In this document: positions 4,186-62,967 of the stretch, piece after piece
How the letters are laid out: every line of letters begins with the position of its first letter
How positions within the stretch are numbered: position 1 is the stretch's first letter
NCBI GenBank assembly: GCA_964450805.1
Contig: CAYVDD010000001.1
Coordinates: 457,288 to 521,287, forward strand
Reading direction: 5' to 3'
From: an uncultured Candidatus Saccharibacteria bacterium
GTDB lineage: Bacteria; Patescibacteriota; Minisyncoccia; Minisyncoccales; JANBVM01
DNA length: 64,000 nucleotides
The notes under the pieces: model-generated
What the model was told of the DNA's origin: nothing
What the model saw: only the letters and a program-made list of their open reading frames with translations
Databases searched by the model: none
Program-made: the position numbers and the translations under genes

Positions 4186-5847
4186 TTATTGAATTGTTCC
4201 ATTAGTTACTGTTGAATCATCAGGCAAGGTGGTATTAATAGCTGAAGCTGAACCTTGTATAATTGTTCCTGTCCAGCTGTCTTCAGCCGTAATCTGTGCT
4301 TCATTAATTATATTTGGAATCTGACCTCTTTGATAGGCAGATGGAGTAAAAGTGATTTGAAAAGCAATTGTTAAAGGCTGCTTGTTAACCCCAATGCCTT
4401 TTTCTAGGTCTCCTGCCAACCAAACAATTTCTCTTGACTGAGAATCAAAGGTAAACTTCTTAAGTTCTGGTTCTGGAAAAACCCTGCCAGTTAATTCTAT
4501 ATTTTGAGGCAAGATTGCTTTTACTTTTGCATTTTTTACATCTGAATAATGATTCCTAACGTGCCACATAATTGTATAAGTAGTAGCTTGTCCTACCTGA
4601 GGTGGAACAGGACCAGAATTACCAAAAACTTCATCCTGAAAATATGCTTTTTGGTCTATTCCAAGTTTTGAACCAATTTTTGTAACGAATTCTTCTTTAA
4701 CCTGTCCAATAAATACTTTGTTTTTTAAAACAGGGTTTTTAACATTACCTAAATCATCTTTTAATCTTATGAAAAAATCAACCTTTCCTTCTTCTGTTGG
4801 AATCAAATACTGAAGATCTGGAACTCTTCTCCAGTCAAAAACAATAGAATTATCTCCTGCCTGAAAAGTTCCATAATCAGATTTTATTGTTTGAAAATCA
4901 AAAGCTTCTCCTTCCAACTGATTAATCATAAATAAATTACTGGCACTGTCATCTCCCACATTTTTAAAGTAAACCTCATAATGAAGCCAATCACCAGGCA
5001 CAGCAACATATTGAGGGTTTCCATTGATTTCCTGTCTGATATAAAGAGAGTGTCTGACCATCTCTACTCCTTTTGTAGCTTCTTTTAAAACAATGAATTC
5101 ACCATCTTTCCAAACACCTAATTTTGCTTTAAAAATCTTTGCCTCACCTAAATTTCCTGAAAGCCTGCCAGAAATTTCGATTCTTCCTCCTTCTGATTTA
5201 TTTAAAAGAGGGATTTCCCATTCTGTCTGCTCAATTGATTTAGGAGTAGCACTGATAAACTCAAAACCAAAAGGATAATCAATCTGGCACCTTAAATTAG
5301 TTAAAAGATGATTAATATTTGAAAAATAATTAATACGGAAAATGAAATCCTTTTCTGAAGCAACTTTAGAAGGCAAATCAAAATCAAAAGTAATTGGAGC
5401 TGATTTAATCTGACTGGTGAAATCTGACGATGATTCATATCTTGCTTTTAAATCTTTAGGACGATAGCTTAACGAAGCTTTAGTAATTTTAATATCTCCT
5501 TCTTTTCCCAGCACACTTATTTTAAATGAAAATGTTTTTTCTTCTCCTGGATATATTGCTTCGCCCAACTCTTCCTGACCAAAAACCTGTCTTTCATAAA
5601 ACTCACCGTCTTTTAATGAATACTCAGGCGGCTCAAAAACAAGCTCAGGATCATCCAAACGAAAATCTCCTTTGTTCTTATAGCTAACAACATATTCCAC
5701 TTCTTCACCCAAAGTAATTTCAGATGGTCCGAATATATCCAATCTTAAAATCTCTTTGGAGTAAACATTTTTCTGCCAGTTCCAGACAAAACCAGCTATC
5801 CCTGCTAAAACAGCTGTGATTATTAAAAAATTGAAAATCTTTTTCAT
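4186..5847 (-). CDS. membrane-anchored extracytoplasmic protein with repeated beta-sandwich (CARDB/DUF11-like) domains
   Basis: 553 aa with an N-terminal TM helix (FNFLIITAVLAGIAGFVW) and repeated EV.Y.V.YKN.G-type segments. Confidence 0.5.
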   Translation of the reverse strand: MKKIFNFLIITAVLAGIAGFVWNWQKNVYSKEILRLDIFGPSEITLGEEVEYVVSYKNKGDFRLDDPELVFEPPEYSLKDGEFYERQVFGQEELGEAIYPGEEKTFSFKISVLGKEGDIKITKASLSYRPKDLKARYESSSDFTSQIKSAPITFDFDLPSKVASEKDFIFRINYFSNINHLLTNLRCQIDYPFGFEFISATPKSIEQTEWEIPLLNKSEGGRIEISGRLSGNLGEAKIFKAKLGVWKDGEFIVLKEATKGVEMVRHSLYIRQEINGNPQYVAVPGDWLHYEVYFKNVGDDSASNLFMINQLEGEAFDFQTIKSDYGTFQAGDNSIVFDWRRVPDLQYLIPTEEGKVDFFIRLKDDLGNVKNPVLKNKVFIGQVKEEFVTKIGSKLGIDQKAYFQDEVFGNSGPVPPQVGQATTYTIMWHVRNHYSDVKNAKVKAILPQNIELTGRVFPEPELKKFTFDSQSREIVWLAGDLEKGIGVNKQPLTIAFQITFTPSAYQRGQIPNIINEAQITAEDSWTGTIIQGSASAINTTLPDDSTVTNGTIQ

Positions 5848-5852
5848 ATTAA

Positions 5853-6581
5853 TTACTTTTGAACACTTATTTCTAAAAGAAAAGAATAATAATTATCAGA
5901 AATCTCTTTTAAGCATTTAATCTGTTCTTTATCTATTTTCAGGCGCGAGATTATTTTAATCTTATTATTAATAATAATTCTTATTATCTTAACTATTTCT
6001 GGTTTAATTTCTATATCAGATTTTTCATCCTTAAAACAATTCTTGCAAATCACCCCTCCCTGACTGGGATTAAAGTAAAGCTTCTCTGGTTTTAACTTAT
6101 TTCCGCAAACAGGACAAGAATACATTTCAGGTCTGTATCCTAAAAAAGACAAAAAGTTCCAAAAAAAATAATAATAAATTAATTCTGGATTTTTGAAATC
6201 AGTATCATTTAATTTATTAAAAACCTCTGTCAGTAAATCCCAAATTCTTTTATCTTTTTCTTCTCCTTTTATCAAATCATCTAAATTTCCGGCAATTCTA
6301 TAAGTAATATTAAGTTTTTTTAAATCTTTTCTTAAATCTTTAAACTTTTCAATAGCAACAGCATCTGTCAATGTTTTATAGCTTTTTCCCTGAATAAATT
6401 CAATTTCTGATAAATAAAAAGTTTCTATTCCTGCTCTTAATTTTGAAGAAATTTTTCTTATCCCTTTTCCTAATATTTTTAATTTCCCAAAATCTTTTGT
6501 ATAAACGCTAAATAACTGAGCAGACTCACCTCTATCAATTTTCTTAAAAACAAAACCTTTGGTTCTATAATGGACAAACAT
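5853..6581 (-). CDS. recO: DNA repair protein RecO
   Basis: 242 aa with an N-terminal OB-fold pattern (GFVFKKIDRGESAQLFSVYTKDFGKL) and a CPVCG...CKNC zinc finger. Confidence 0.85.
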   Translation of the reverse strand: MFVHYRTKGFVFKKIDRGESAQLFSVYTKDFGKLKILGKGIRKISSKLRAGIETFYLSEIEFIQGKSYKTLTDAVAIEKFKDLRKDLKKLNITYRIAGNLDDLIKGEEKDKRIWDLLTEVFNKLNDTDFKNPELIYYYFFWNFLSFLGYRPEMYSCPVCGNKLKPEKLYFNPSQGGVICKNCFKDEKSDIEIKPEIVKIIRIIINNKIKIISRLKIDKEQIKCLKEISDNYYSFLLEISVQK

Positions 6582-7037: not shown

Positions 7038-10000
7038 TTAAATTATTTTTTTGACCTTTTTAATAAATAATTGCAGTTTTTGGCCATTAATACCAACTTG
7101 CTTTCCTTTTTTCAATCCTTTAACTAAATCTATATCCTTTGCCTTTGTTTCTTTGTTAATCATTTTCTCTTTTTTTAGCAACAGCTCGCTCATATCACGC
7201 TCTGCACTAAACTGAATTATAACAACATCTTTTGGAGTTAGTTTCTTGCTCTTTCTCATTTCCTGAATATTTCTAATCACCTCTCTTATTATTCCTTGCT
7301 CTTTTAATGATTTAGTAATTTCTGTATTTAGCTTTATCTGTTTTCCAAAACCAATGTCTAAAACATTAACTTCTTGTTTAATTAACTCTAACAAATCTTT
7401 TTCATCTTTTAACGTCTTGTCCTTAATTATTAACTCCTGCAAAGCTTGTCTTACTTTTATTTGAGCTTTCGCCCTTTCTGCCAAAGCCTGGGTAACAATC
7501 TCTCTTGCTTTTTCCATTTTTTTATTAAGTTGATTATCAATTGATTTTTCAGTTTTTTCAGGCCAGTCTTCTAAATGAACTGATTCTTTGGTTTTTAATC
7601 CTGATTTTTTAAAATCCTGATATATATATTCAGTAAAAAATGGAACAAATGGAGCTGATAATTTTATTATTTGAAAAATCACAAAGCTTAAAGTTCCAGC
7701 AGCATCTTTTAATTCTTTTTCATTTTCAGGCTGCTGAAACCTTTTTCTAGATCTTCTAATATACCACAAAGAAAGCTCATTCATAACAAACTTTTCAATA
7801 CTTCTGGCTGCACCAGTTATATCATAATTTTCCAATAATTTAGTGGTTTTTACAATCAGGTCATTAAGTTTAGAAACAATCCATTTATCTAAAATATGCT
7901 TAGAAGATGGATTTTCAAAACTTAAGAATCTGCTGTCAGCATAAGTTTTTAAAAACACATAAGAATTCCACAAAGGAAGAATAAACTTTCTTAAAGAATT
8001 TTCCGGCTCTTTTTCAGAAAATAACTTTGGGTCACCAGGTTGATTAACAGTGTAAAAGGACCACCTAACAGCATCAGCTGAATATTTTTCAACAATATAC
8101 CATGGGTCAATAATATTGCCTTTTGATTTGGACATTTTCTCTCCTTTTTCATCTAAAATATGACCTAAAGAAATAACATTTTTATAAGCTGCTCCTTTTT
8201 CAAGCAGAGTTGAAACAGCTAGAAGAGTATAGAACCAGCCTCTTGTTTGATCTATTGCCTCACAGATATAATCTGCTGGAAACTGTTTATTATTATCAAT
8301 TAGTTTTTTATTCTCAAAAGGATAATGATATTGAGCAAAAGGCATTGCTCCTGAATCAAACCAGCAGTCAATTACTTCTTCAACTCTTTCCATTAAAGCA
8401 TTGCACTTTGAACATTGAAATTTAACCTCATCAACATAGGGACGATGAAGGTCAAGCTCTATTTTTTTATTGAAAGGCAAATCAGTAAATTTAACTTCAC
8501 AGAACTGACCAGTTTTAACTTCTTCATTCTCTGTTCTCCATTCAATAATTTCTTTAAGCGACCAAGCTTCTAAAGTCTTTTGCAGGATTGTTAAAGGAAG
8601 CCCGTGAGAAACTATTAAAATGTTTTTATTTTTATGTTTTTTATTAATTTCTTTAATAAAACTATACATTCTTTTTCTTATTGCTATTAGGCTTTCTCCT
8701 TTTTCAGGCTTTGCTTCAAATAAGTTCTTTTGCTTATTTGCATATTCCCAGAACAGCCTTGTTTCCTTACCATTAAAAATGCCTGTATTAAACTCTCTTA
8801 ATCTTTTATCAAAAACAAGCTGGGTTTTTAATGCTTTGGTAATAATTTCTGCAGTTTGTTTTGTTCTTAATAGGTCAGAAGAAAAAATTAAATCAATTTT
8901 TTTGTCCGCTAATTTTTTGACTGATTTTTTTACTTCCTCTTTTCCTTTTTCTGTTAAAGGACAATTTATTTTCTCTGGCCAGCATATTGATATTTCTTTA
9001 TCCATTTTCTGCTTTAAAGATTCTCCATGGCGCATAATAAAATAATTATTACTGCCAAACTTCTTGCTTAGAATATCGTTTAAACTACCAATAACTTCAG
9101 TGTTTTTACATTCCTTGCACTGCCAGACAGGAAGCGGTGTTCCCCAATATCTCTCTCTTGCAACAGCCCAATCTCTCACTTCTTTGAGCCAGTTTCCAAA
9201 TCTTCCTTTTTTAAGATATAAAGGAAACCAATTGATTTTTGAATTGTTTTTAATCAATTCTTTTTTAACTTTTGTCATTTCAATGAACCAGCTTTTTTTA
9301 GCATAGTAAAGCAGAGGAGTGTTGCATCTCCAGCAAAAAGGATAATCATGTTCATACAATTCTTGTTTAAATAGCAATCCTCTTTCTTTTAAATCTTCAA
9401 TTATTAAAGGGTCAGCTTCTTTAAAATACATTCTTGCCCATTTTTCTACGTTTAATCTGAATCTTCCCTGTTCATCAATATTCAGTATAATTGGAAATTT
9501 ATTCTTTTTCCCTGCTTCCATATCTTCTACTCCATAAGCTGGTGCAATATGAACAATGCCTGTTCCCTCATCTAAAGAAACGAAATCAGCGCCTATGACT
9601 TTGTAAGCACTTCTTGAAACCTCATCTTCAGGATAAAGCGCTTCATATCTTAAATTTAAAAACTCTCTGCCTTTAAACTCCTGAATAATTTCACCTTCAA
9701 TTTCACAAGCTTTAATTCTTTGTTTTGCTAAAATCAAATATTCGCCATTTATTTTTACTTTAACGTAAGTATTCTTAGGATTTACGGCTATAGCTACATT
9801 TCCAGGCAAAGTCCAGGGCGTTGTAGTCCAGACCAAAAAAGAAGTATTTTCAAAACCAGGACTTATAATTTTAAGTTTAATATAAATAGCTGGTTCTTTT
9901 ACTTTCTTATATCCTTGAGCCACCTCATGAGAAGAAAGAGGAGTTCCGCATCTTGGGCAATAAGGGACAACTTTAAAATCCTGAATTAAAAGCTTTTTGT

Positions 10001-10484
10001 TCCAGATTTGTTTTAAAATCCACCATAAAGATTCAACGTATTCAGTATTGTAAGTGATATAAGGATTATCTAAATCCACCCAATAAGCAATCCTTTTTGT
10101 TAAATCTCTCCAGCTTTGTGTGAATTTCCAGACAGATGTTTTGCATTTTTCGTTAAATTTGGAAATACTATATCTTTCAATGTCTTTTTTTGATTTCAAA
10201 TCCAGTTTTTTCTCAATCTGAAGTTCTACTGGTAAACCATGAGTGTCCCAACCAGCTTTTCTTAAAACCCTAAAACCTTTCATTGTTTTGTACCGACAAA
10301 TTATATCTTTAAAAACTCTGGCTAGAACATGATGAAGGCCAGGAGGCGCATTAGCAGTAGGAGGTCCCTCATAAAAAACGAAATCCCGAGCCTTTACTCG
10401 TTGTTTTATGCTTTTTTCAAATATTTTATTATCTTTCCAAAGCTTTAAAACTTTCTTCTCTGTTTTAGGAAGATTAAAATTCAT
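7038..10484 (-). CDS. ileS: isoleucyl-tRNA synthetase carrying an internal histidine-phosphatase domain
   Basis: 1148 aa with PPGLHHVLAR (HIGH-type), KMSKS, editing-domain WTTTPWTLP, and DLHRPYVD. An internal RHGES...SHG phosphatase-like block spans aa 481-665. Confidence 0.95.
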   Translation of the reverse strand: MNFNLPKTEKKVLKLWKDNKIFEKSIKQRVKARDFVFYEGPPTANAPPGLHHVLARVFKDIICRYKTMKGFRVLRKAGWDTHGLPVELQIEKKLDLKSKKDIERYSISKFNEKCKTSVWKFTQSWRDLTKRIAYWVDLDNPYITYNTEYVESLWWILKQIWNKKLLIQDFKVVPYCPRCGTPLSSHEVAQGYKKVKEPAIYIKLKIISPGFENTSFLVWTTTPWTLPGNVAIAVNPKNTYVKVKINGEYLILAKQRIKACEIEGEIIQEFKGREFLNLRYEALYPEDEVSRSAYKVIGADFVSLDEGTGIVHIAPAYGVEDMEAGKKNKFPIILNIDEQGRFRLNVEKWARMYFKEADPLIIEDLKERGLLFKQELYEHDYPFCWRCNTPLLYYAKKSWFIEMTKVKKELIKNNSKINWFPLYLKKGRFGNWLKEVRDWAVARERYWGTPLPVWQCKECKNTEVIGSLNDILSKKFGSNNYFIMRHGESLKQKMDKEISICWPEKINCPLTEKGKEEVKKSVKKLADKKIDLIFSSDLLRTKQTAEIITKALKTQLVFDKRLREFNTGIFNGKETRLFWEYANKQKNLFEAKPEKGESLIAIRKRMYSFIKEINKKHKNKNILIVSHGLPLTILQKTLEAWSLKEIIEWRTENEEVKTGQFCEVKFTDLPFNKKIELDLHRPYVDEVKFQCSKCNALMERVEEVIDCWFDSGAMPFAQYHYPFENKKLIDNNKQFPADYICEAIDQTRGWFYTLLAVSTLLEKGAAYKNVISLGHILDEKGEKMSKSKGNIIDPWYIVEKYSADAVRWSFYTVNQPGDPKLFSEKEPENSLRKFILPLWNSYVFLKTYADSRFLSFENPSSKHILDKWIVSKLNDLIVKTTKLLENYDITGAARSIEKFVMNELSLWYIRRSRKRFQQPENEKELKDAAGTLSFVIFQIIKLSAPFVPFFTEYIYQDFKKSGLKTKESVHLEDWPEKTEKSIDNQLNKKMEKAREIVTQALAERAKAQIKVRQALQELIIKDKTLKDEKDLLELIKQEVNVLDIGFGKQIKLNTEITKSLKEQGIIREVIRNIQEMRKSKKLTPKDVVIIQFSAERDMSELLLKKEKMINKETKAKDIDLVKGLKKGKQVGINGQKLQLFIKKVKKII

Positions 10485-10522
10485 ACATATCTTAAAATAT
10501 CATTTTAAGAGTAAAAATGCAA

Positions 10523-10530
10523 TTAAAATT
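10523..10530. repeat. 8-bp direct repeat TTAAAATT (left target-site duplication)
   Basis: Identical octamer directly abuts the outer end of each inverted repeat (10523-10530 and 12433-12440). Confidence 0.6.
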
Positions 10531-10556
10531 GGGAATTATATACAACTAAACACTAA
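10531..10556. repeat. left terminal inverted repeat (26 bp, perfect)
   Basis: GGGAATTATATACAACTAAACACTAA is the exact reverse complement of 12407-12432. Confidence 0.9.
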
Positions 10557-10619
10557 GATAACAAAAAACAACCTCCTTTAGAAGGGGGTGTTTTTATAGT
10601 AGTTTATATATTAAATTTG

Positions 10620-10874
10620 TTATAAACCTACCCACTCTTTATTTGTCTTAGCAGACTTTCGGATTATATTTTTAATCACCTCCTTGCCACGAGGTTTTGG
10701 ATGATGGTGAACTTCTACCGCTTTTCTCTTTCCATCTTTTATGTGGGAGAAAATATAACGATTTCCTTTTGTTGCTTCTAACTTAAATCCGTTCTTTTTT
10801 AGTTTTCTTATAATTTCTTCTGCTTTTTCTGGAGAAAGTTTAGGTTTCTCGCCTGTTTTCTTTTTAGGCATCAA
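10620..10874 (-). CDS. HicA-like toxin (YcfA family mRNA interferase-like)
   Basis: 84 aa with SPEKAEEIIRKLKKNGFKL...VEVHHHPKPRGKEVIKNIIRKS, matching the HicA layout. It overlaps the upstream HicB-like gene by 11 nt. Confidence 0.55.
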   Translation of the reverse strand: MMPKKKTGEKPKLSPEKAEEIIRKLKKNGFKLEATKGNRYIFSHIKDGKRKAVEVHHHPKPRGKEVIKNIIRKSAKTNKEWVGL

Positions 10875-11226
10875 CTTTTTGTTTTATATCTTTTAAAGGA
10901 TAAAACACTTGCTGAATAGCAAAATTCCAATAACATTCTCTTTTATCCTCTTTTTTACTTGACTCTTTTATTTCTTTCTTCAAATAATTTCTATATTTTT
11001 CCCAGTATTCTTCAGGAGCTAATTCATTAAGTAATTCATCTGACCAATTTTTCTTAATTATAGTTTCTAAATAAAAATCAGAGGCTTCCCAAATAGTTTT
11101 TAAAGTTTCTTGAACAGTTTCGCCTTCTTCTATAAGGTCAAACTCTAAACAAACACCAATAAAATAATTAGGTTTTTCTGGATAGACAAATAAAGTAAAT
11201 TTTCCTTGTTCTTTTGTATTTTTCAT
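10864..11226 (-). CDS. HicB-like antitoxin
   Basis: 120 aa with FTLFVYPEKPNYFIGVCLEFDLIEEGETVQETLKTIWEA, matching the HicB N-terminal fold pattern. Confidence 0.5.
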   Translation of the reverse strand: MKNTKEQGKFTLFVYPEKPNYFIGVCLEFDLIEEGETVQETLKTIWEASDFYLETIIKKNWSDELLNELAPEEYWEKYRNYLKKEIKESSKKEDKRECYWNFAIQQVFYPLKDIKQKVDA

Positions 11227-11589
11227 ATTCTTAAATTAAAAATACAACAAGTTCAAATAATTATTGTTGCATTAAATTTTTTAAAAAAGAAACCCCCATC
11301 TTGCTTTATGATACCACTCTTGACAAGTTAAGTTTTCCACAGGTTCGTTAAAAAGTCAAGCCTCTCTATACTATGACGAAAAAAGAGGTGACTTATTACC
11401 GAATAAGAGGAGAATTACTACAAAAAAACAACCTTTAGCAGAGGTCGTTTTATTTCTTCTTCCCCCTCTTTTTTTAGACGACTGCGAGTTCTTTGATAGC
11501 TGGAAATCTGACTTTTTGTATTTTGCCACCGCTTTTACTACCTTTTTGAATGGCAGGTTTAACGGCTCTATAATTTGTTTTTTTCGCAT

Positions 11590-12220
11590 TTTTTCTTATT
11601 AGTTTTCTGTATTTTAACCCATTCTGACGATTTTGACAAAGTCTTTTCCTGTAGTGTTGTCAAGTACTTGGAAACACTTGACACCGAATCTTCCTCTGAC
11701 ATACAATTTAAATAGATAGACAAAATTCCAGCAAACGTGGAGGCACTTAGATGCCTCTACCTACAACGTTGTGATTGAAGACTTTGGCCAAAGTCACTTG
11801 TGATTTTAGTTGGGTCATAAATCCCAACCTCACCCGTTTTTGAGAACGGCAAGACCAGTAGAAGTAATCCAAATGCCCCCAAATTTAATGGGATTTTTTT
11901 GTTTACATTGTTAATGTGCTTTGAAGCTGTGGTAATTAAAAAAGCTCCAAAGGGCGGAACTTGTGGGCTATGATTTTTGAAATCAATACCCCGCATTTTT
12001 GGTTTGCAGAGCTTTTCGCCCCGCAAGTACCACCCCTTAGAGCCTTTATCTTAATCAAAACTTGTTATTAAGTTTTAAATTGTGATATGCGTTTAGTTCG
12101 CGCCCACTTCTGTTTTACCCCAGAAGCTAGGGGTTTAATATTTAATTATTAGATTTTCGCATTTCCAAAAATCCTTGTCAAGGGTTTGCCAACTTTCTTT
12201 TGATTTTTTAAGATGAAAAT
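11590..12220 (-). other. G+C-elevated non-coding core of the cassette (candidate structured RNA or decayed gene)
   Basis: It holds no credible ORF and is visibly more G+C-rich than other intergenic DNA. It contains many hairpins, for example GAGGCA-N6-TGCCTC at about 11741-11758, the GACTTTGGCCAAAGTC palindrome, GTTGGGTCATAAATCCCAAC, and CCCC-N8-GGGG at about 12117-12132. A minus-strand TTGACA-N17-GAAAAT promoter lies at about 12150-12180. Confidence 0.35.
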
Positions 12221-12406
12221 ATGAAAGAAACATTTGGATTTTTTTTATTTGGAGCAGGATTGGTTATTTTAATATATTGCGTATATAAAGATTTGAGTCC
12301 TTGGTACTGGTTCTTAGCGACGATTGGAATTGGAGGAGGTTTAGACTTGTTGATTAGTGGTAAAATAGAAAAAGCAAAAGAAGAAATAATAAGAGAAATA
12401 GAATAA
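12221..12406 (+). CDS. small two-TM membrane protein
   Basis: 61 aa with two hydrophobic helices (FGFFLFGAGLVILIYCVY and WYWFLATIGIGGGLDLLI). It ends immediately before the right TIR (12407). Confidence 0.45.
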   Translation: MKETFGFFLFGAGLVILIYCVYKDLSPWYWFLATIGIGGGLDLLISGKIEKAKEEIIREIE

Positions 12407-12432
12407 TTAGTGTTTAGTTGTATATAATTCCC
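12407..12432. repeat. right terminal inverted repeat (26 bp, perfect)
   Basis: TTAGTGTTTAGTTGTATATAATTCCC is the reverse complement of 10531-10556. Confidence 0.9.
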
Positions 12433-12440
12433 TTAAAATT
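12433..12440. repeat. 8-bp direct repeat TTAAAATT (right target-site duplication)
   Basis: Same octamer as 10523-10530, directly outside the TIR. Confidence 0.6.
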
Positions 12441-12536
12441 AATATTGATTTTTTAAAAAAATAAGTGTATTATAAAAATAGGGAATTTGTAATACTATTT
12501 GCAATTCACTGACTAAGAATTGCTTTTTGTTTAAGA

Positions 12537-12761
12537 ATGAGTAAAAAAGAACAATTTTTATCAGAACATAATAGATTATCTCCTCCAAATCTAAAAGCTA
12601 CAAAATCTTTACTTTCTCGTTTTAGAGCAGAAAGGGCTTCTCTTTTTAAAGATAAAAGCTGGTCTATAGAAAAACTTCGAAGACCATTTATTCTATGGCT
12701 TACTTCTTTAACATTAAAAGAAAAGCAGGATATTAATAAAAACGAAAAAAAAATAAGTTAA
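12537..12761 (+). CDS. hypothetical basic protein
   Basis: 74-aa ORF followed by a hairpin/U-run at about 12783-12808. No motif recognised. Confidence 0.35.
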   Translation: MSKKEQFLSEHNRLSPPNLKATKSLLSRFRAERASLFKDKSWSIEKLRRPFILWLTSLTLKEKQDINKNEKKIS

Positions 12762-12829
12762 TCGGATCTATGAGTTAAAATTAAAAAACCTCCTTTTAGG
12801 CGGTTTTTTAATTCTCCTGATTATAAGGT

Positions 12830-14416
12830 TTACATTTTTTCAGGTGCTGAGATTCCCATCAAATCAAAGGTGTTTTTGAATACAGTTTTTGTGGCCAGAA
12901 TTAAAGCTATTCTAGCCTGTTTTAGTTTTTTATCATCAGTTAAAACCTTGCAATCCTGATAAAACTTATGAAATATAGTTGCCAAATCAATAGTATACTG
13001 AGGTAGCTTTTGAACCTGATAATCTCTACTAATATCTTCGATGATTTCTGAAAATTTCAAAAGTTGTTTTATTAAAGAAACTTCAGAAGCATGACTTAGT
13101 AAAGAATACTCAAAGCCTGTTGTCTTTACTTTTGATTTTTTTAAAATACTGCAAATTCTGGCATGAGCATACTGAATATAATAAACAGGATTTTTCTCTG
13201 ACTGTTCTTTTGCTAAATCTAAATTAAAATTTAAATGAGTATCTGCTGATCTTTGAAGAAAAAAGAATCTGACAGCGTCTCTGCCCACCATATCAATTAA
13301 ATCATCCATTGTTACATAAAGACCTGCTCTTTTTGACATTCTTATTTTTTTTCCTTTTTCAAAAAGAGTAATGAACTGCAGAATCACTATTTCAAGTCTG
13401 TTTTTATAACCAAGAGCTTCAATAATTGCTTTAAGCCCAGCTATGTCTCCATAATGATCAGCTCCCCAAACATTAATCACCTTATCAAATTTCTTGTTTT
13501 TAAATTTATATTCATGAAGAGCTGCATCTCCTGCTAAATAGGTTTTCCATTTATCTGATTTAACTATTACCCTGTCTCTGTCATCTCCATACTGTTTTGA
13601 CTTAAACCACAAAGCACCATCTTTTTCATACAAAAAACCAGTCTTGTTTAATTTATCTATTACTTTATCAACTAGCCCAGATTGATGAAAACTAGATTCT
13701 GAAATCCATTCATCATATTTAATGGACATCTTATCAGTGGTTTTTTTAATCATTTCTTTAATAATAATCTCAGCTGCCTTTTCCCCTGCCTTATACACGT
13801 CTTTTTCTTTTATTTTTTTATTTAAATAATCAATATAACTACCTTTGTATTTTGCTTGTTCGTCTTTTAAAACAGAGTGTCCCAAAGTCATAATCTGCAT
13901 ACCATAATCATTGATATAATATGCTTTCTCTGTTTTATAACCTGCTTTCTGAAAAACATTTGCTAAAACATCACCAAATGGCCCTCCTCTTGCATTACCA
14001 ATAGTCAAAGGCCCTGTTGGATTAGCAGAAATGAACTCAACTTGAACTTTTTTGTTTTTACCTATTTTAAGCTGGCCAAATTTGTTTTTTTCTTTTAAAA
14101 TCTTTGCAACCTGTTTTTGTAAATAAGTTTTTGAAATAAAAAAATTAATAAATCCTGGTTTCACTATTTTAATTCTTTCAAACAAATCTGGTATTTTATT
14201 TTTTAAGTTTTCAGTCAATAATTCCGCTGTTTCTACCGGGTCTTCCTTTATTTTTTTTGCAATTATCATTGCAATATTACTAGAATAATCACCATGAATT
14301 TCTTGTTCAGGATGTTCAACTTTAATTTCTTCAACATCAAAAACAGGAATTTTTTTCTGTTTTTGAAGTTTAGTTATTGATTCTTTTATTAATTTTTTAA
14401 TTTCTTCTCTAATCAT
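12830..14416 (-). CDS. argS: arginyl-tRNA synthetase
   Basis: 528 aa with FISANPTGPLTIGNARGG (HIGH region), MSKR, and a C-terminal DALR-type anticodon-binding domain. Confidence 0.95.
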   Translation of the reverse strand: MIREEIKKLIKESITKLQKQKKIPVFDVEEIKVEHPEQEIHGDYSSNIAMIIAKKIKEDPVETAELLTENLKNKIPDLFERIKIVKPGFINFFISKTYLQKQVAKILKEKNKFGQLKIGKNKKVQVEFISANPTGPLTIGNARGGPFGDVLANVFQKAGYKTEKAYYINDYGMQIMTLGHSVLKDEQAKYKGSYIDYLNKKIKEKDVYKAGEKAAEIIIKEMIKKTTDKMSIKYDEWISESSFHQSGLVDKVIDKLNKTGFLYEKDGALWFKSKQYGDDRDRVIVKSDKWKTYLAGDAALHEYKFKNKKFDKVINVWGADHYGDIAGLKAIIEALGYKNRLEIVILQFITLFEKGKKIRMSKRAGLYVTMDDLIDMVGRDAVRFFFLQRSADTHLNFNLDLAKEQSEKNPVYYIQYAHARICSILKKSKVKTTGFEYSLLSHASEVSLIKQLLKFSEIIEDISRDYQVQKLPQYTIDLATIFHKFYQDCKVLTDDKKLKQARIALILATKTVFKNTFDLMGISAPEKM

Positions 14417-15632: not shown

Positions 15633-16073
15633 ATGAAAGTAATTACTGAGAATAAAAAAGCATATTTTAATTACCAAATCCTGGAGAAATTTGAAGCAGG
15701 CATTTCTTTGACTGGGCAAGAAGTAAAATCAATTAAACTGGGGAGAATTAACCTGGCTGGAGCTTATGTTGTTTTAAAAGATGGAGAGGTGTATTTAGTT
15801 GGAGCCAATATTCCTCCTTATCAACCCAAAAACGCACCGAAAGACTATAATTCTAAAAGACCAAGAAAGCTACTTCTCACTAAAAAAGAAATTAAGTATT
15901 TAATAGGGAAATCAAGACAAAAAGGTTTGACAATGATACCCTTAATAATTTATACTAGGAAAGGTAAAATAAAGCTGGAATTCGGTTTAGCTAAAGGAAA
16001 AAAGAAGTTTGATAAAAGAGAAGCTATTAAAAAAAGAGAAACTCAAAAAGAAATCAAAAGAATATTGGGATAA
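15633..16073 (+). CDS. smpB: SsrA-binding protein SmpB
   Basis: 146 aa with NKKAYFNYQILEKFEAGISLTGQEVKS, the canonical SmpB N-terminus. Confidence 0.95.
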   Translation: MKVITENKKAYFNYQILEKFEAGISLTGQEVKSIKLGRINLAGAYVVLKDGEVYLVGANIPPYQPKNAPKDYNSKRPRKLLLTKKEIKYLIGKSRQKGLTMIPLIIYTRKGKIKLEFGLAKGKKKFDKREAIKKRETQKEIKRILG

Positions 16074-16080
16074 AGTATAA

Positions 16081-16421
16081 GGGGATGTAAAGATTCGACA
16101 GGAATTTGAATAAAAAATGCAAGTCGAGCTTCGAATCTCGTAAATCTTCGAAAACAAAATTAAGTGCCAATAATTTATTTGCACCCGCATTAGCTACTGC
16201 TTAATGCCGTTTACTTTGCTGATTCTCGATAGGCAAAAGTAAGCGTTATATCATCGAGATAGATAGTTTTTTGGAAACTGGGAAAGCTATTAAAAATCAA
16301 CAGAATAAAAGTCAGAAAAATTTTGCCCAGTTTAAATTTTCTGAGTTCAACCAATTGGGCTAAACTTGTAGAATTATTTTAGAATAATTTCTGGACAAGG
16401 GTTCGCCCCCTTCATCTCCAC
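16081..16421 (+). ncRNA. ssrA: tmRNA (SsrA)
   Basis: The 5' end GGGGATGTAAAGATTCGACAGGAATTTG pairs with the 3' end GGGTTCGCCCCCTTCATCTCCA, forming the tRNA-like acceptor and T-arm. The tag reading frame is GCC AAT AAT TTA TTT GCA CCC GCA TTA GCT ACT GCT TAA (16166-16204), giving ANNLFAPALATA*. Confidence 0.9.
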
Positions 16422-16428
16422 TAAAAAA

Positions 16429-29288: not shown

Positions 29289-30188
29289 TTAAAGGGTATC
29301 AATAAAAGCCTCTAATCGTGTTTGAAAGCCTGCTTCACCTGTCTGTTCATCAATTATTAAGTATAAAAAAGGAATTTTCTTACTTTTAAATTCTTTTTCA
29401 ACAAACTCTTTTAATACTGCATCGCAACCACAGGCAAAAGAAGAAATCTCAATCGCTCCTGTAATATCGTATTTTAATATTTCCTGAATCTTTTTAAATA
29501 TTTCTTTTCCAAATTCCCAGTGGAACTTGGGGATAGAGGTAAATTCCTGTGAAGAGTCATTCAGAGTTGTACTAACTGGAACTGCATCAATAAAAACTAC
29601 CTCCACTCCTAATTTCTCCAATTTCTCTTTTGTTTTTAAGTTAACATAATCATCAAAAAGATTATAGGGATGAGATATTAAGACAATCTTTTGCTTTTCC
29701 AAAGACATTTTGTTTAAAAAAATCTGTTTTTCTTTTTTCTTCAAATCATTTTCTTTTAAACAAGCTGCTTTAAATGCCTGTTCTATTTCCTGGCTATTTT
29801 TACCGAGCTTTTTACCAAGTTTTTCAAGACTTTTTTCAAATGATTCTTTTTTCTCATCAAAAGTTTCTGTTAAAATTGGAGTCTTAACCAAAATTTTTGC
29901 CAAATCAGGCAAAGCAAAAAACTTAGGGCAATACTCTAATTTTTCTTTATTTGTTTTAAGCCTTGGAACAAAAATTAAATCACACTTTTCATCAAGCCAC
30001 ACTAAATGACCCCAGTAAACCTTGTTTGAAAAACAGGTTTCAGGGTCAGCTACTTTCACTCCTTTAGCAACAATCTGTTTATTCGTTAAAGGAGAAAGCA
30101 GAACCTTAAAACCAAGATTTTTAAAAAAATCTTCCCAAAAATATGGTTTTTTAAAATAAATTAAAGATCGAGGAATGCCTATCTTCAT
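29289..30188 (-). CDS. BCR/HAD-associated component (DUF2229-like)
   Basis: 299 aa with PETCFSNKVYWGH, EYCPKF and SSFACGCDAV. Its C-terminus GEAGFQTRLEAFIDTL parallels AEAGINTRIEAFVDVV of the neighbouring protein. Confidence 0.5.
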   Translation of the reverse strand: MKIGIPRSLIYFKKPYFWEDFFKNLGFKVLLSPLTNKQIVAKGVKVADPETCFSNKVYWGHLVWLDEKCDLIFVPRLKTNKEKLEYCPKFFALPDLAKILVKTPILTETFDEKKESFEKSLEKLGKKLGKNSQEIEQAFKAACLKENDLKKKEKQIFLNKMSLEKQKIVLISHPYNLFDDYVNLKTKEKLEKLGVEVVFIDAVPVSTTLNDSSQEFTSIPKFHWEFGKEIFKKIQEILKYDITGAIEISSFACGCDAVLKEFVEKEFKSKKIPFLYLIIDEQTGEAGFQTRLEAFIDTL

Positions 30189-55963: not shown

Positions 55964-57088
55964 TTAAGTAGCCTTGATCGGCATTATTATATAAAGATAA
56001 TCTTCGTCCCCTAACGGCTTTAAAGCTGCTGGGCCATCCTTGTCTGTTAACTCAAAACTTATTTTATCTTTTTTAATTTCAGAAATTCCCTCAATTAAAA
56101 ATCTGTGATTAAAAGAAACAGAAAGTTCGTCTCCTTTAATGTTTCCAGTGAAAAAACTTTCATATTCTCCAAGATCAGGACTTTGACTAAATACCTCAAT
56201 TTTATTATTTTTAGGGCTAATTTTTAATTTAACCTCGTTTATTTTACCACTAAAAAGGCTGGCACTCTTAATTTGATTAAGAAACTCTTTTTTTTGTACC
56301 TGAACCTGCGTCTTATATTTTTTAGGAATAATTTCTTTATAATTAGGATATTCTCCGCTAATTAATCTTGAAATAAACTGAATTTGAGGGTGGTCTGTTT
56401 CACTCATCATACATTCAAATAAAATCTGATTTGGGGAAAAACAAATTTTTAAATCTCCTTGTTTCTCCCCAAAAACACTGATGATTTCTTTAGCAGCAGA
56501 CTGGGGTAAAATTAAAGAATGTTTTTTAGAAATTTTAGTATTAATAAATATTTTTTTCTCAGCCAATCTAAAGCTATCAGTGGCAACCATTTTAATTAAA
56601 TTACTTTCAAAAACAAAATATATACCAGAAATCTCGGGTCTGACAGTAGAAGATGAAGGAATATTTAATATTTGAGATAAAGCCTGACAGAAACTAAAAT
56701 TATCAATTTTAATAATTTGTCCTTCTTTTAATTGAGGAATAATAGGGAATTCTTCCGAATTAATTCCTTTGATTTTTGTCTTATAATTATCACAAACTAA
56801 ATCCATAATAAAATTCTGTACTTTTAAATCAATAGTTTTATTAGGTAAGAAAGTTAAAAGATTGGAAAGAAATTTTGTTGGAATACAAATTTCACCCTGT
56901 TTTCCAACCTTAACTAAACCCCACCAATTAATAGCTGATTCTAAGTTAGTAGTTGATAATTTTAAAAAGTTTTTTTCAGTTTTAAAAAGAATATTTTGTA
57001 AAATTGGCAAAGTTAATGATTTGTGGGAAATTTTTTCAACAATGTCAATTCCTTCTTTTAATTTTTCTTTTAATATAATTATTTTCAT
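55964..57088 (-). CDS. dnaN: DNA polymerase III beta sliding clamp
   Basis: 374 aa immediately downstream of dnaA with a three-domain clamp pattern. Confidence 0.9.
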   Translation of the reverse strand: MKIIILKEKLKEGIDIVEKISHKSLTLPILQNILFKTEKNFLKLSTTNLESAINWWGLVKVGKQGEICIPTKFLSNLLTFLPNKTIDLKVQNFIMDLVCDNYKTKIKGINSEEFPIIPQLKEGQIIKIDNFSFCQALSQILNIPSSSTVRPEISGIYFVFESNLIKMVATDSFRLAEKKIFINTKISKKHSLILPQSAAKEIISVFGEKQGDLKICFSPNQILFECMMSETDHPQIQFISRLISGEYPNYKEIIPKKYKTQVQVQKKEFLNQIKSASLFSGKINEVKLKISPKNNKIEVFSQSPDLGEYESFFTGNIKGDELSVSFNHRFLIEGISEIKKDKISFELTDKDGPAALKPLGDEDYLYIIMPIKAT

Positions 57089-57238
57089 TGTTATTGTTGT
57101 ATTTATTTTTTTTAATTATTTTTAAAGTTAATTGATTTGGGGAAAACTAAGGTATTTTTTGTGGAATTTATTAAAGAAAATTTTGGAATTCTAATATTAT
57201 TTTTTTTATAGTTATTTTTTACAGACTTTTTCCACTGT
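57089..57238. other. dnaA-dnaN intergenic AT-rich region with DnaA-box-like sites
   Basis: TGTGGAATT (57160-57168) and TTTTCCACT (57227-57235) match TTATCCACA/TGTGGATAA at 6-7 of 9 positions. Long A/T tracts are present. Confidence 0.35.
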
Positions 57239-58588
57239 TTAAGTATATAAAAGACGTTGTTTTATTAACTCAATTTCCTCTCCTAAACTCTCATTTTTAT
57301 CAACTTCTTTTGTAATTTTCTCGTAAGCGTAAATAGCTGTTGTATGATCTTTACCTCCAAATCTTCTACCAATAAATGGGAAAGATGCTTTTAATTCACG
57401 TCTTAATAAAAACATAGCAATTTGTCTGGGCCTAACAATTTCTTTTTTTCTTGAAACTGATAATAAATCTTTTTCTTTCAAATCATAAAAATCAGCAACA
57501 ATCTGAATTATTTTTTTAGCATTAACAGTGCGCGAAGGCGATAAGGTTAAATTTTTAAGAAGTGTTTTAGTTATTTTTAAATCAGGGATATTATTATTTA
57601 GTTTTTGGTAGGCAATTAAAATATTTAGAGCTCCTTCTAATTCTCTGATATTTCTCTGAACCACTGAACCAATGTAATTTAGAACCTCATCTGAAAATTC
57701 AATTTTTCTTTCCTGACATTTTGATTTTAATATAGCAATTCTTGTTTCTAGATCTGGAAAGGATATATCAGTTATCATTCCTCCTTCAAAGCGTGATCTT
57801 AGTCTCTCAGCTAAGGCTGGAATTGATTTTGGTGTTCTGTCAGATGAAATGATTATTTGTTTATTTTTTTCATATAAACTATTAAAAACATAGAAAAATT
57901 CTTCTTGGGTTTTTTCTTTTCCTGTTAAAAACTGGACATCATCTATTATTAAAACATCAATTTTTTGATATTTAGCTTTTAATTTTTCAGTTTCTCTATT
58001 CCTTATTGACGATATTACTTCAGCAACAAACTTTTCTGTTGGTATATATTTTACTTTTTTATCTTCAAAATTTTTAATAACCTCATTACCAATAGCCTGT
58101 AATAAATGAGTTTTTCCAAGGCCTACTCCTCCATAAACAAAAAACGGATTATATACCTGGCCTGGTTTTTTTGTTACTGCCCATCCAGCTGCTTGGGCTA
58201 ATTCATTAAATGGGCCCACAATAAAGCTGTCAAAAGTATATCTAGGATTAAGGTTTGTATCTTTATCAACTTTGAATTCTTGAAATTCTAATTGTCTGTT
58301 TTCAATAGAAAAAGGAACGGCTTTTTTAAGAATCTCTGTTTTTGGCTTTCCAACTTCATATTTTATTTCTTTAGTTGTGCCGTCTAGTTCGCGTAATACT
58401 TTAAAAATAGTCTTATTGTATTTTTGTTCCAGCCACTCTTTAGCAAAGGAATTAGGCACAGATACAAAAATACAGCCTTCTTTCTGGGAAGCAATGCGCG
58501 TATTTTTAAACCAGGTAGCAAAGCTGGCTGGAGAGATTTGAATCTGGATTTGGGCTAGCACTGCTTGCCAGAGTTCTTCATTATTCAT
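57239..58588 (-). CDS. dnaA: chromosomal replication initiator DnaA
   Basis: Has Walker A GGVGLGKTHLL, LIIDDVQFL, and the domain IV segment HTTAIYAYEKI. Confidence 0.95.
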   Translation of the reverse strand: MNNEELWQAVLAQIQIQISPASFATWFKNTRIASQKEGCIFVSVPNSFAKEWLEQKYNKTIFKVLRELDGTTKEIKYEVGKPKTEILKKAVPFSIENRQLEFQEFKVDKDTNLNPRYTFDSFIVGPFNELAQAAGWAVTKKPGQVYNPFFVYGGVGLGKTHLLQAIGNEVIKNFEDKKVKYIPTEKFVAEVISSIRNRETEKLKAKYQKIDVLIIDDVQFLTGKEKTQEEFFYVFNSLYEKNKQIIISSDRTPKSIPALAERLRSRFEGGMITDISFPDLETRIAILKSKCQERKIEFSDEVLNYIGSVVQRNIRELEGALNILIAYQKLNNNIPDLKITKTLLKNLTLSPSRTVNAKKIIQIVADFYDLKEKDLLSVSRKKEIVRPRQIAMFLLRRELKASFPFIGRRFGGKDHTTAIYAYEKITKEVDKNESLGEEIELIKQRLLYT

Positions 58589-60522: not shown

Positions 60523-62304
60523 CTACAGCCCTTTTTCTTTTCTTATTTTCAATATTTCTTCTGGAGAAGTGGTAATTATTTGGTCTTCAGTATAAGAAGC
60601 AACTGATTTAATGGCAACGTGTTTCTGACCAGCAAAGAATATTCCTTCGCCAACCTCTGCTTCTAAAAGCAGATATTTTTCTCCTTCTGTTAAATTAAAT
60701 ATTTTCTGTACTACATCAATTGTTGCTGAGGATTGTTTCATTATAACCTGCAAGGATGAGTTTGTAATAATTGGTTGTCCATAGGAAGATTTCATAAAGT
60801 CATTAACATCCTGTGTCACTGTAGTTACTCCAAGCCAGTATTTTCTGCCTCTTTTGCAGATTCCATAAAGAAATGAGGCGCCATCTTCGTTTTGCATTAT
60901 CCACCAGGCTTCATCAACCAATAAAATCCTTTTTTTCATTTCAGTTCTTACTTTGTTCCAGATATACCTCATAATAATAAACATTGCCATTGGTCTTAAT
61001 TCATCCTCCATATCTCTTATCCCAAAAGCCACAAGGGGTTTATCCATTGAAATATTTGTTGGCTGGTTGAAGAATTGGGCAAATGTTCCTTTTGTAAATT
61101 TTCTAACTCTTCTGACTAATGATTCTGCTCCCTCCATTCGTTGTAAAACCTGCTCAAAATCCTGCATTAGAGGGATTCTTCCCCGCCAGGTAGATGGGTC
61201 ACTTTCAGGTGTGATATCTTTTGCAGCATAAGTTTCAGTTAAAGCCTGGTCAATTATTGCATCCTCTTCAGAAGTTAATCCTCCCAGCATAATCCTTAAA
61301 AGCCCGACTAAATTGATAACGTTTGAACGTAGAACATCTTCTGGTTTTTCTCCCTCTCTTGGAGTGGGCAAGTCAAAAGGATTAATATGGTTTGGCGAAG
61401 CTAAAGAGATATTAAAAAAAGAACCATCTACTGACTCAGCTAAATATTTATACTCATTCTCAGGGTCTAAAATCATAACCTCAATTCCTGTCATTAAAGA
61501 CCTTAATATCTCCAATTTCACGAAATAACTCTTACCGCTTCCTGATTTTCCAAACAAAATCTCATTTGCATTCTCTAAGCTAAACCTGTCGAATAAAATC
61601 AAGGAATTATTATGTCTGTTGATTCCATAAAGTATTCCATCGTTTGAACTTAAATCAAAAGAAACAAAAGGAAAGATTGAAGACAAAGGACCAGTATTCA
61701 TAGTTGTATGAACCTGGAGCTGGTCTAATCCATAAGGAGCTGAAGTGTTGAATCCTTCACGTTGCTGGTAAAGAGAAGGTTTAATATATATCAATCGTGA
61801 TTCTAAAATTGACCTTAGATTGGTTTCAATTTCTCTTAACTGCTGAACAGTGTCTCCATAAACTGTTAAATAAATGCCGAATCTAAACATTCTTTCCTGA
61901 GCAGTTTGTAGACTATCTCTTAATGTTTCTAGGTCCTGATAAGCAACCTCTAGTGTTGGGTCTCTAATTAAGCCTTTTTCTTGTCTTTCAGAAAGTTCAG
62001 CTGCTACCTCTGTAACCTTTTTCCTTAATTGTTTTAAAACCATTCCAGTATCAATAGGATGGACGTGAATAGAAACACTCATAGGAGTGTCCATATTAAT
62101 AATTGGAGAAAACCAGCCTGTACTTAAATATCTTGGATAGGAAAAAATAAAGAAAGATTTGGCTAATTTTTTGCCCAGCTTCATATAATCTGGGGTTGTG
62201 GCAAGTGAAGAAGGCGCAATTATATCCTTAATGCTTATTGTTGGAGCTTCAAAAATTTGCGCTGGCAAATCTTCTTTTTTCTTTTTAAAAAATGGCAATT
62301 TCAT
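60523..62304 (-). CDS. VirB4/TraC-type type IV secretion ATPase
   Basis: 593 aa with Walker A FGKSGSGKSYF, Walker B ILLVDEAWWIM and a CagE/TrbE-like C-terminus. Confidence 0.75.
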   Translation of the reverse strand: MKLPFFKKKKEDLPAQIFEAPTISIKDIIAPSSLATTPDYMKLGKKLAKSFFIFSYPRYLSTGWFSPIINMDTPMSVSIHVHPIDTGMVLKQLRKKVTEVAAELSERQEKGLIRDPTLEVAYQDLETLRDSLQTAQERMFRFGIYLTVYGDTVQQLREIETNLRSILESRLIYIKPSLYQQREGFNTSAPYGLDQLQVHTTMNTGPLSSIFPFVSFDLSSNDGILYGINRHNNSLILFDRFSLENANEILFGKSGSGKSYFVKLEILRSLMTGIEVMILDPENEYKYLAESVDGSFFNISLASPNHINPFDLPTPREGEKPEDVLRSNVINLVGLLRIMLGGLTSEEDAIIDQALTETYAAKDITPESDPSTWRGRIPLMQDFEQVLQRMEGAESLVRRVRKFTKGTFAQFFNQPTNISMDKPLVAFGIRDMEDELRPMAMFIIMRYIWNKVRTEMKKRILLVDEAWWIMQNEDGASFLYGICKRGRKYWLGVTTVTQDVNDFMKSSYGQPIITNSSLQVIMKQSSATIDVVQKIFNLTEGEKYLLLEAEVGEGIFFAGQKHVAIKSVASYTEDQIITTSPEEILKIRKEKGL

Positions 62305-62330
62305 ATAAACAAAGTATAAGGTTTAGTTCA

Positions 62331-62966
62331 TTAAGTGGTTAGTTCTGGTGGTATTTCCGGATAATAACCAACTTCAGATTCTTCTGGATGGTATAAACTC
62401 CAGAAAAGCTCAATTAATTCAGTGGTATTTAAAGGAATAGATTGAAGCCCGCATCTTCTTAATCCTAAGGCAGCGAATTCCATTCTTTGCCAGAGCTGGG
62501 TTTTTGCTCTTTGAAATTTTTCCTCTGTTAAAGACGCAGCCTTTTTTCTCCTTGTTTCTTCAGCAGTTAATTTATGAAGCTCAAAAAGACTGAAAGGAAT
62601 TATTACAAAAAATTGTTTTGACATAATTCCTCCGCCTTTAATTATTTCTTTTATGAACTTCTGATATTCAGCAATTTGAATTTTTAAAAGCTCGGTTTTT
62701 TCTTTTCTTTCCAATTCCTTTAACTTATCCAAGTATCCTGTAATGTTTAGTTTTTTTGACTGGACAACTATTTCAATAGAAAAATCCAAAGAATTTAAAA
62801 AATTCTGAAACTGGAAGATAGTGGCATTTTGTTCTTCTTCTGATTTCAAGGCAAAATTAATAGATGAAACCATTAATACTCCTCTTAAGGTTTTGTTTTT
62901 TAAAATAATAACTCCTTCCTTAATTTGATCTATTTCTATGATTTGCTGTGTTGTTCCTTGAGCCAT
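62331..62966 (-). CDS. hypothetical protein, VirB4 N-terminal-domain-like
   Basis: 211 aa with IKEGVIILKNKTLRGVLMVSSINFALKSEEEQ, resembling the N-terminal module of Gram-positive VirB4/TraE proteins. Confidence 0.4.
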   Translation of the reverse strand: MAQGTTQQIIEIDQIKEGVIILKNKTLRGVLMVSSINFALKSEEEQNATIFQFQNFLNSLDFSIEIVVQSKKLNITGYLDKLKELERKEKTELLKIQIAEYQKFIKEIIKGGGIMSKQFFVIIPFSLFELHKLTAEETRRKKAASLTEEKFQRAKTQLWQRMEFAALGLRRCGLQSIPLNTTELIELFWSLYHPEESEVGYYPEIPPELTT

Positions 62967-62967
62967 A

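Follow-up and report, generated by a model that had tools for sequence, protein, structure and literature searches.

The question raised by the argS-ileS spacer of contig CAYVDD010000001.1 (assembly GCA_964450805.1) is how a 1.9-kb segment, which has the ends of a transposon and a set of passenger genes and lacks a gene for a transposase, came to lie there. The segment (the element in the following) had been pointed out in an annotation made from the sequence alone, referred to here as the initial annotation, and was analysed in the stretch of 64,000 nt that surrounds it (positions 457,288 to 521,287 of the contig; the window). The element is probably a mobile insertion cassette (MIC), that is, a non-autonomous unit in which 26-bp ends recognised by a transposase enclose cargo.

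Ends of the element and target-site duplication

The two arms of the element, at 10531-10556 (GGGAATTATATACAACTAAACACTAA) and 12407-12432, are complementary at 26 of 26 nt, and the pairing ends exactly at these limits. When up to three mismatches were allowed, the 26-mer was still found at only these two sites in 64 kb, as compared with 0.00 sites expected from 100 dinucleotide shuffles. The octamer TTAAAATT is located directly outside both arms (10523-10530 and 12433-12440). In this window, which is AT-rich (31% G+C), pairs of 8-mers taken at a fixed offset match exactly at a frequency of 3e-5 to 9e-5. The perfect 26-bp terminal inverted repeats (TIRs) and the 8-bp target-site duplication described in the initial annotation were thus both recovered, and so was the distance of 46 nt from the element to ileS (TIR tip at 10531, ATG at 10484). 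It had been conceded there that the 26-mer might turn out to be a common promoter or operator motif, which is not the case in the 64 kb, where it marks the two element ends only. Between the duplications the element comprises 1902 bp with three genes, and it is present in one copy. An insertion of the transposition type, with cargo and without a transposase, is therefore supported, as had been proposed. The features of the element and of the adjoining DNA are listed in Table 1.

Table 1. Positions in the window of features of the element and of its immediate flanks.
Feature	Position	Strand	Remark
Native ileS core promoter (flanking DNA)	10494-10522	-	Conserved in element-free relatives
Target-site duplication, ileS-side copy (TTAAAATT)	10523-10530		Abuts left arm
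Left TIR, 26 nt, GGGAATTATATACAACTAAACACTAA	10531-10556	+	Outward TATAAT at 10540-10535, minus strand
Hairpin with T-run 3' of hicA, terminator-like on both strands	10572-10589	-	Terminator prediction
hicA toxin gene, 83 aa from ATG	10620-10871	-	Pfam PF07927; called in public assemblies
hicB-like antitoxin gene, 120 aa	10864-11226	-	Fold match; upstream of hicA
72-aa open reading frame	11371-11589	-	Probably no gene
Intrinsic-terminator-like hairpin, 10 pairs with T-run	11425-11451	-	Upstream of hicB promoter region
Promoter-like site TTGACA-18-TACAAT (11/12)	11678-11707	+	Consensus match only; reads towards 61-aa open reading frame
Second, moderately structured segment	11700-11900	-	By folding; multi-branch fold closed by long stem
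Candidate small RNA, ~210 nt	11935-12146	-	Three short hairpins, then 120-nt hairpin (11935-12055)
Promoter-like site TTGACA-17-(TG)GAAAAT for candidate small RNA	12153-12181	-	Consensus match
Promoter-like site TTGCCA-17-TAAGAT	12186-12214	+	6 nt before ATG of 61-aa gene; would give leaderless mRNA
Gene for 61-aa protein with two transmembrane helices	12221-12406	+	Called in public assemblies; stop codon abuts right TIR
Right TIR, exact reverse complement of left TIR	12407-12432	-	Inverted-repeat pairing
Target-site duplication, argS-side copy (TTAAAATT)	12433-12440		Abuts right arm
Promoter of 74-aa open reading frame, TTGATT-17-TATTAT (flanking DNA)	12445-12473	+	L018 equivalent TTGACT-17-TATTAT

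The empty site and the point of insertion

The closest named relatives are genomes of Candidatus Nealsonbacteria of ~0.65 Mb. In L014/L015 and L016/L017 (ArgS 80% identical), the spacer between argS and ileS consists of ~90 nt and nothing else, while in L012 (CP179890.1; ArgS 82% identical) it holds a different insert of 1.6 kb with an NYN-domain gene. L018 (ArgS 83% identical) shares an open reading frame (ORF) of 74 aa beside argS, which is followed by unrelated DNA. The spacer covers 10485-12829 in the window, 9588-11224 in L012 and 3995-4444 in L018. Since the relatives have a ~90-nt spacer or other DNA at this place, the cassette represents an insertion. In-silico removal of the element together with one octamer gives ...TATTAATTTTAATTGCATTTTTACTC..., which aligns without gaps with ...TATTAAGTTTGATTGCATTTTTACTC... 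of L012 and runs on into ileS. The reconstructed empty site, TATT-AATTTTAA-TTGCAT, is collinear with TATT-AAGTTTGA-TTGCAT of L012 and contains ...AAAAAATCAATATTAATTTTAATTGCATTTTTAC.... Hence, the comparison with empty sites that had been recommended in the initial annotation favours insertion at the level of species relatives, both by the ~90-nt spacers and by the collinearity with L012. The L012 spacer further contains GC-rich structured DNA and two diverged direct repeats of 57 nt (10736-10792 and 11112-11168), and the L018 spacer contains small Cys-rich ORFs.

The landing site, beside the essential tRNA synthetase gene ileS, is a 12-nt AT-rich gap between the back-to-back -35 boxes of ileS and the 74-aa ORF. 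On the ileS side, a -35 box TTGCAT (10522-10517) is followed by a 17-nt spacer and a TG-extended -10 box TATTTT (10499-10494), and the ATG of ileS at 10484 lies 9 nt past the -10 box. In L012, L016 and L014, which are all without the element, this block is kept, almost unchanged in the first and in recognisable form in the other two, and because of this conservation TTGCAT-17-(TG)aTATTTT is assigned as the native ileS promoter. On the other side, the -35 box of the divergent 74-aa ORF starts 4 nt beyond the argS-side octamer. Neither of the flanking promoters is disrupted by the element.

Each TIR does contain the outward TATAAT that had been noted, and on the ileS side an internal TTGTTA lies 18 nt upstream of it, forming a promoter-like TTGTTA-18-TATAAT on the minus strand (10564..10535) whose -35 box falls within the hicA terminator, in its T-tail. 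The suggestion that ileS is driven from this end of the element is however unsupported, as the native promoter is intact and is conserved in L012, L016 and L014; promoter capture is therefore not needed for expression of ileS. The same applies to an older insertion at this site, for which a degenerate TIR at 12481-12495 had been put forward. This segment has only the seven bases GGGAATT in common with the TIR. It lies upstream of the 74-aa ORF, in a region that is conserved in L018 (there GAGAGTTTGTAATAC), and therefore it is no relic of an older insertion. Look-alikes of the TIR tip occur in the window at chance level (30 found, 23.6 expected).

The 74-aa ORF itself (12537-12761, plus strand; 3695-3994 in L018) is antisense to argS and ileS. 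With its promoter it is kept in L018 (85% amino acid identity) and is absent from three other relatives, and it had no family match in Pfam, NCBIfam or PHROGs.

The hicB-hicA operon

The product of hicA matched Pfam PF07927 (HicA_toxin; E 1.4e-7, 31.9 bits versus a cut-off of 27) and PHROG 353, annotated as 'toxin' (E 2e-8). The gene overlaps by 8 nt with the hicB-like gene, whose 120-aa product had no match in Pfam or NCBIfam; a profile of its family, searched against the sequences of solved structures, gave only noise. An AlphaFold2 model built from the family alignment (predicted local distance difference test score, pLDDT, 82) has an N-terminal domain with a beta-beta-beta-alpha order, and of the ten best matches to it in the PDB, seven represent HicB or HicB-like antitoxins (among them 6g1n, 6g1c, 5yrz, 3k6q and 6u0i). 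These matches reach a probability of up to 0.98 and a root-mean-square deviation of 1.7 Å over 56 residues, but their E-values are 0.1-1.6. The C-terminal half, predicted with lower confidence, consists of helices and one strand, and no ribbon-helix-helix (RHH) or helix-turn-helix (HTH) fold was recognised in it. The pair thus resembles HicAB type II systems in the HicA match above the cut-off, in the N-terminal fold of HicB (partial RNase H-like) and in the overlap of the genes, and differs from them in that the partner of HicA has neither a match to a HicB sequence model nor, in its predicted structure, a recognisable C-terminal RHH or HTH. On this basis, the HicB/HicA-like pair named in the initial annotation can be retained, HicA by Pfam and HicB by its predicted fold.

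Homologues of the HicB-like protein are 46-64% identical, and their genes always precede one for HicA, in surroundings that are unrelated. No TIR-like flanks were found around those in other contigs of the candidate phyla radiation (CPR) (L003, L004-L007 and L008-L011). The nearest homologous hicBA operon has 75% similarity at the DNA level, which ends at the operon borders (10612-11226). As relatives of hicBA occur without such ends, and as the DNA similarity stops at the borders of the operon, the cargo was assembled from modules, of which the operon is one.

The 12-mer AAAAAACAACCT occurs at 10563-10574 and 11423-11434, where it starts both minus-strand terminator hairpins, one 3' of hicA and the other upstream of hicB. 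This common 12-mer suggests that the two terminators are related copies.

The 61-aa protein and the 72-aa ORF

A word-indexed search with the 61-aa protein returned only the protein itself, and there was no named family match in Pfam, NCBIfam or PHROGs. A full HMMER scan identified 12 remote homologues (54-81 aa, 38-56% identity), which have in common a pattern of two transmembrane (TM) helices, a C-terminal tail with charged residues and the motif GxGLDLxIDGKI. The 61-aa ORF is therefore a real gene, in line with the initial annotation, and by sequence its product defines a small, unnamed family of predicted two-TM proteins. The 72-aa ORF had been called doubtful and is most likely no gene: it is not called in public assemblies, has no match in the Pfam, NCBIfam or PHROG libraries and reads through the predicted terminator at 11451..11425.

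A candidate small RNA in the gene-free part of the element

About 1 kb of the element (11227-12220) contains no called gene. The minus strand of 11930-12150 has a minimum free energy of -78.8 kcal/mol (z = -8.0), which was equalled by none of 200 shuffles, as compared with -62.4 kcal/mol (z = -4.1) for the plus strand. The asymmetry is due to several G-U pairs in the basal stem of the 120-nt hairpin. In a sliding scan, structure was strongest over 11900-12150 of the minus strand (z between -5 and -7.5), and the candidate RNA was the most structured 150-nt segment in a sample of 512 segments from the whole 64 kb. The base of the 120-nt hairpin coincides with a predicted terminator (11962..11942) and is followed by a U-run. 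Together, the hairpin, the terminator-like end and the promoter-like site predict a minus-strand RNA of ~210 nt. An RNA from the plus-strand promoter-like site at 11678-11707, if this is used, could be antisense to the structured minus-strand RNA.

Structured DNA of about 600 nt had been claimed for this region. The claim holds for 11900-12150, where the minus-strand structure is strong, and to a moderate extent for 11700-11900 (z = -3.85 on the minus strand versus -2.5 on the plus strand for 11690-11935), but not for 11415-11700, whose minus-strand fold is insignificant (z = -0.7). The next most structured 150-nt segments of the window, ~30001-30150 (minus strand, z = -4.5) and 14251-14400 (plus strand, z = -4.3), lie in coding sequence or at its borders.

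No Rfam 15 family was matched by the candidate RNA at the gathering score. Matches below the threshold were to microRNA-type families and rli24 only (E at least 0.2), all of them noise that results from the long hairpin. A T-box was considered, as a GGGUGGUAC string and a GGGUGGUACUUGCGG motif resemble its core, and was rejected; an Rfam search with 511 nt gave no T-box match, and no antiterminator could be drawn. Two 18-mer matches of an RNA segment in IMG/VR fall in unrelated coding sequence of a phage and are attributed to chance, and another RNA segment gave no match. Stop-codon recoding came into question because one frame of the minus strand has a series of TAG stops, and was also dismissed, since the product of read-through neither shows protein-like features nor gave any match.

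Search for a transposase

No similarity to a transposase was detected in the ORFs of the element using Pfam, NCBIfam and PHROG. The six frames of 11200-12260 were further divided into stop-to-stop fragments, which gave 27 of at least 25 aa, and the ten longest of these were scanned against Pfam, with no resemblance to any family even at E up to 10. The absence of an interior transposase, noted from the start, thus extends from the element ORFs to these fragments. Likewise, none of the 60 window ORFs that reach 100 aa or more encodes a transposase or an integrase; the gene content comprises housekeeping genes and a few type IV secretion-like genes. In blastn searches with the whole element, phages gave only a low-complexity match covering 4%, and plasmids gave nothing.

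Comparison with known element classes

A MIC is defined by two inverted repeats (IRs), the lack of a transposase and a target duplication, and examples are MIC231 of Bacillus cereus, mic-qnrD in Proteeae and mic-qnrS2 in Aeromonas (PMC3913671). MIC231 is mobilised in trans by the transposase of IS231A (PMC3913671). The element likewise has two IRs and a target duplication, no transposase inside or nearby, and passenger genes unrelated to transposition. As it conforms in structure to the published definition (PMC3913671), it is no new kind of element. The resemblance to MICs extends, beyond the IRs, the target duplication and the missing transposase gene, to a passenger region of 1-2 kb whose genes have expression signals of their own (PMC3913671). 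In contrast to MIC231, for which the cognate IS231A is known, neither a cognate insertion sequence (IS) nor a second copy was found for the element. The cargo also differs, being an enzyme or a resistance determinant in known MICs and a toxin-antitoxin operon, a small membrane protein and a structured RNA in the element, and so does the host, here a member of the CPR with Ca. Nealsonbacteria genomes as relatives.

Miniature inverted-repeat transposable elements (MITEs) are typically shorter than ~0.6 kb, non-coding and multi-copy. The element is like them in being non-autonomous and in having TIRs and a target duplication, but it is 1902 bp long, carries three genes and is single-copy. The description of a non-autonomous, cargo-carrying element larger than a MITE given in the initial annotation therefore agrees with size, gene content and copy number. 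Many transposons of the Tn3 family carry type II toxin-antitoxin modules, which may stabilise them, and the element is similar to these in having a toxin-antitoxin pair inside transposon ends. However, Tn3-family transposons have IRs of ~38 bp, 5-bp duplications, a transposase and a resolvase, none of which is found in the element.

Among the families with 8-bp duplications, which also include IS256, ISL3, IS6 and IS66, the IS1595 family was compared more closely. ISApl4 of this family has the IR GGGGCTGTACTAGA and AT-rich 8-bp duplications such as TTAAAAAT (PMC12561309). The element resembles the family in its AT-rich duplication of 8 bp and in IRs that begin with GGG, but the IS1016-group tip GGGGCTG (PMC12561309) departs from that of the element after GGG. 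The element tip GGGAATTAT would fit 'ggnnatTAT', which we take to be the end consensus of the ISNwi1 group of this family in the ISfinder table. Some members of the ISNwi1 group carry passenger genes. Moreover, no DDE transposase of the IS1595 type (PF12762) is encoded in the element or the window, and no cognate copy was found. For the transposase family, an IS1595-like enzyme is the best guess, with the chances rather against it.

Explanations for the origin of the element

If the element is a MIC, a DDE-type transposase supplied in trans would have moved the cassette into the argS-ileS spacer, and a cut staggered by 8 bp would have left the duplication of TTAAAATT. Insertion into the 12-nt gap between the divergent promoters would have harmed neither ileS nor the 74-aa ORF, which is probably why the cassette survived in a compact genome of ~0.64 Mb. 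The cargo would consist of independent transcription units, i.e. hicB-hicA, the gene for the 61-aa two-TM protein and the divergent ~210-nt minus-strand RNA. A translationally coupled type II hicB-hicA pair would penalise loss of the cassette and may thus have an addiction role. The insertion is best explained as recent.

Several results weigh against assignment as a MIC. The element was found in a single copy when its TIR was searched in three forms (23 nt exact, 18 nt exact, and 14 nt together with a transition-tolerant purine/pyrimidine code of 12 positions), as the TIR occurs neither elsewhere in the window nor in the 185,579 representative genomes, the JGI metagenomes or IMG/VR. The same collections contained no cognate transposase or master IS, so that the search for a master copy advised in the initial annotation came out negative and mobility in trans remains a proposal. 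Furthermore, no otherwise identical genome with an empty site was found, and exact-protein look-ups with HicB, ArgS and the 74-aa ORF led to the source genome only; for this reason, the empty site is inferred at the species level. Finally, the fit of the tip GGGAATTAT to the ISNwi1-group consensus is a tentative one. In favour of a MIC, 39 transposases have been reported in a Nealsonbacteria genome (bioRxiv 10.1101/2022.04.20.488981), so that helper enzymes in the lineage are plausible.

An autonomous IS or transposon might instead have arrived and then lost its transposase gene by decay or deletion in place, leaving 11227-12220 as the wreck. The ~1 kb without a called gene is indeed close to the size of a small transposase gene, and the element is single-copy. 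However, the ten longest fragments of 11200-12260 show no Pfam resemblance, and a strand-asymmetric fold with its own promoter-like and terminator-like sites would not be gained by a decaying ORF. The perfect TIRs and the duplication argue for a young insertion, which would have left too little time for a transposase gene to erode beyond recognition, and a decayed autonomous element is considered quite unlikely. It is extremely improbable that no transposon was involved and that the inverted repeat represents regulatory or structural sites, such as operators or inversion sites, with the octamers matching by chance. Although words of the TTAAAATT type are common (18 + 23 occurrences in 64 kb) and TATAAT is present within each repeat, the exact 8-mer has a joint chance of less than 1e-4 of standing at both junctions, and a perfect IR of 26 nt is expected 0.00 times. 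In addition, the whole segment is missing from the relatives, no further occurrence of the motif was found in the window or the searched collections, and no invertase or recombinase gene lies nearby. Three different inserts in one spacer (in the window, L012 and L018) could also point to a general hotspot, at which an islet was acquired by integrase-mediated or homologous recombination. Yet there is no integrase, tRNA or att-like direct repeat longer than 8 nt, and TIRs, which were looked for around the L012 insert, are not present there. As TIRs with an 8-bp duplication are the signature of DDE transposition and not of an integrase, such an islet has only the slightest probability.

A further proposal concerns the cargo and is compatible with a MIC, namely that the 61-aa protein and the structured RNA form a type I-like pair of a toxin and an antisense RNA. 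An mRNA starting from 11678-11707 would have a leader of ~510 nt that is perfectly complementary to the small RNA across 11940-12146. In favour of such a pair, the layout is divergent and each strand bears promoter-like sites. Folding of either strand is also better than that of shuffled sequences, and the family of small hydrophobic proteins is real. On the other hand, the promoter calls are consensus matches only, and a terminator-like site at 12117-12134 on the plus strand together with the promoter-like site at 12186-12214 suggests that the mRNA is leaderless and has no overlap with the small RNA. Two TM helices with a charged tail are also atypical of type I toxins, and the pair is judged improbable. 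Hardly probable, too, is a self-stabilising CPR 'addiction' transposon, in which this RNA-based pair would be the main payload, accompanied by hicBA, and which would be moved by a transposase lineage with ends unmatched in public data. If true, it would represent a new class of TIR-mobilised toxin-antitoxin/small-RNA cassettes.

Assignment of the element as a MIC, the preferred explanation, involves no new principle of mobility. CPR genomes are very small and compact, and little is known of how they acquire accessory genes. A clean and apparently recent MIC would show that transposase-less cut-and-paste cassettes operate in CPR bacteria, and, if the assignment is true, such cassettes could carry toxin-antitoxin modules and non-coding RNAs. 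The element also draws attention to a strongly folded RNA of ~210 nt without a known family and to a small family of conserved membrane proteins.

Other features of the window and its relatives

The ileS gene next to the element (7038-10484, minus strand) encodes an IleS of 1148 aa with a His_Phos_1 domain (PF00300) between the two halves of the catalytic domain. The same architecture is found in all Nealsonbacteria relatives compared (L012, 11225-14662; L014, 9675-13112; L016, 9682-13128). A transfer-messenger RNA gene (16081-16423, plus strand; Rfam, 140.8 bits), which was not reported by ARAGORN, directly follows smpB (15633-16073). In L012, an ORF for a LAGLIDADG homing endonuclease (5495-5995) is located between infC and smpB and is absent from the window and the other relatives. 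At 55964-58588 and 60523-63372 in the window, a likely origin region with dnaN and dnaA is followed by rnpA, yidC and a KH/R3H gene, and these by type IV secretion-like genes for a P-loop ATPase of the TraG/VirB4 type and a PrgI-family protein.

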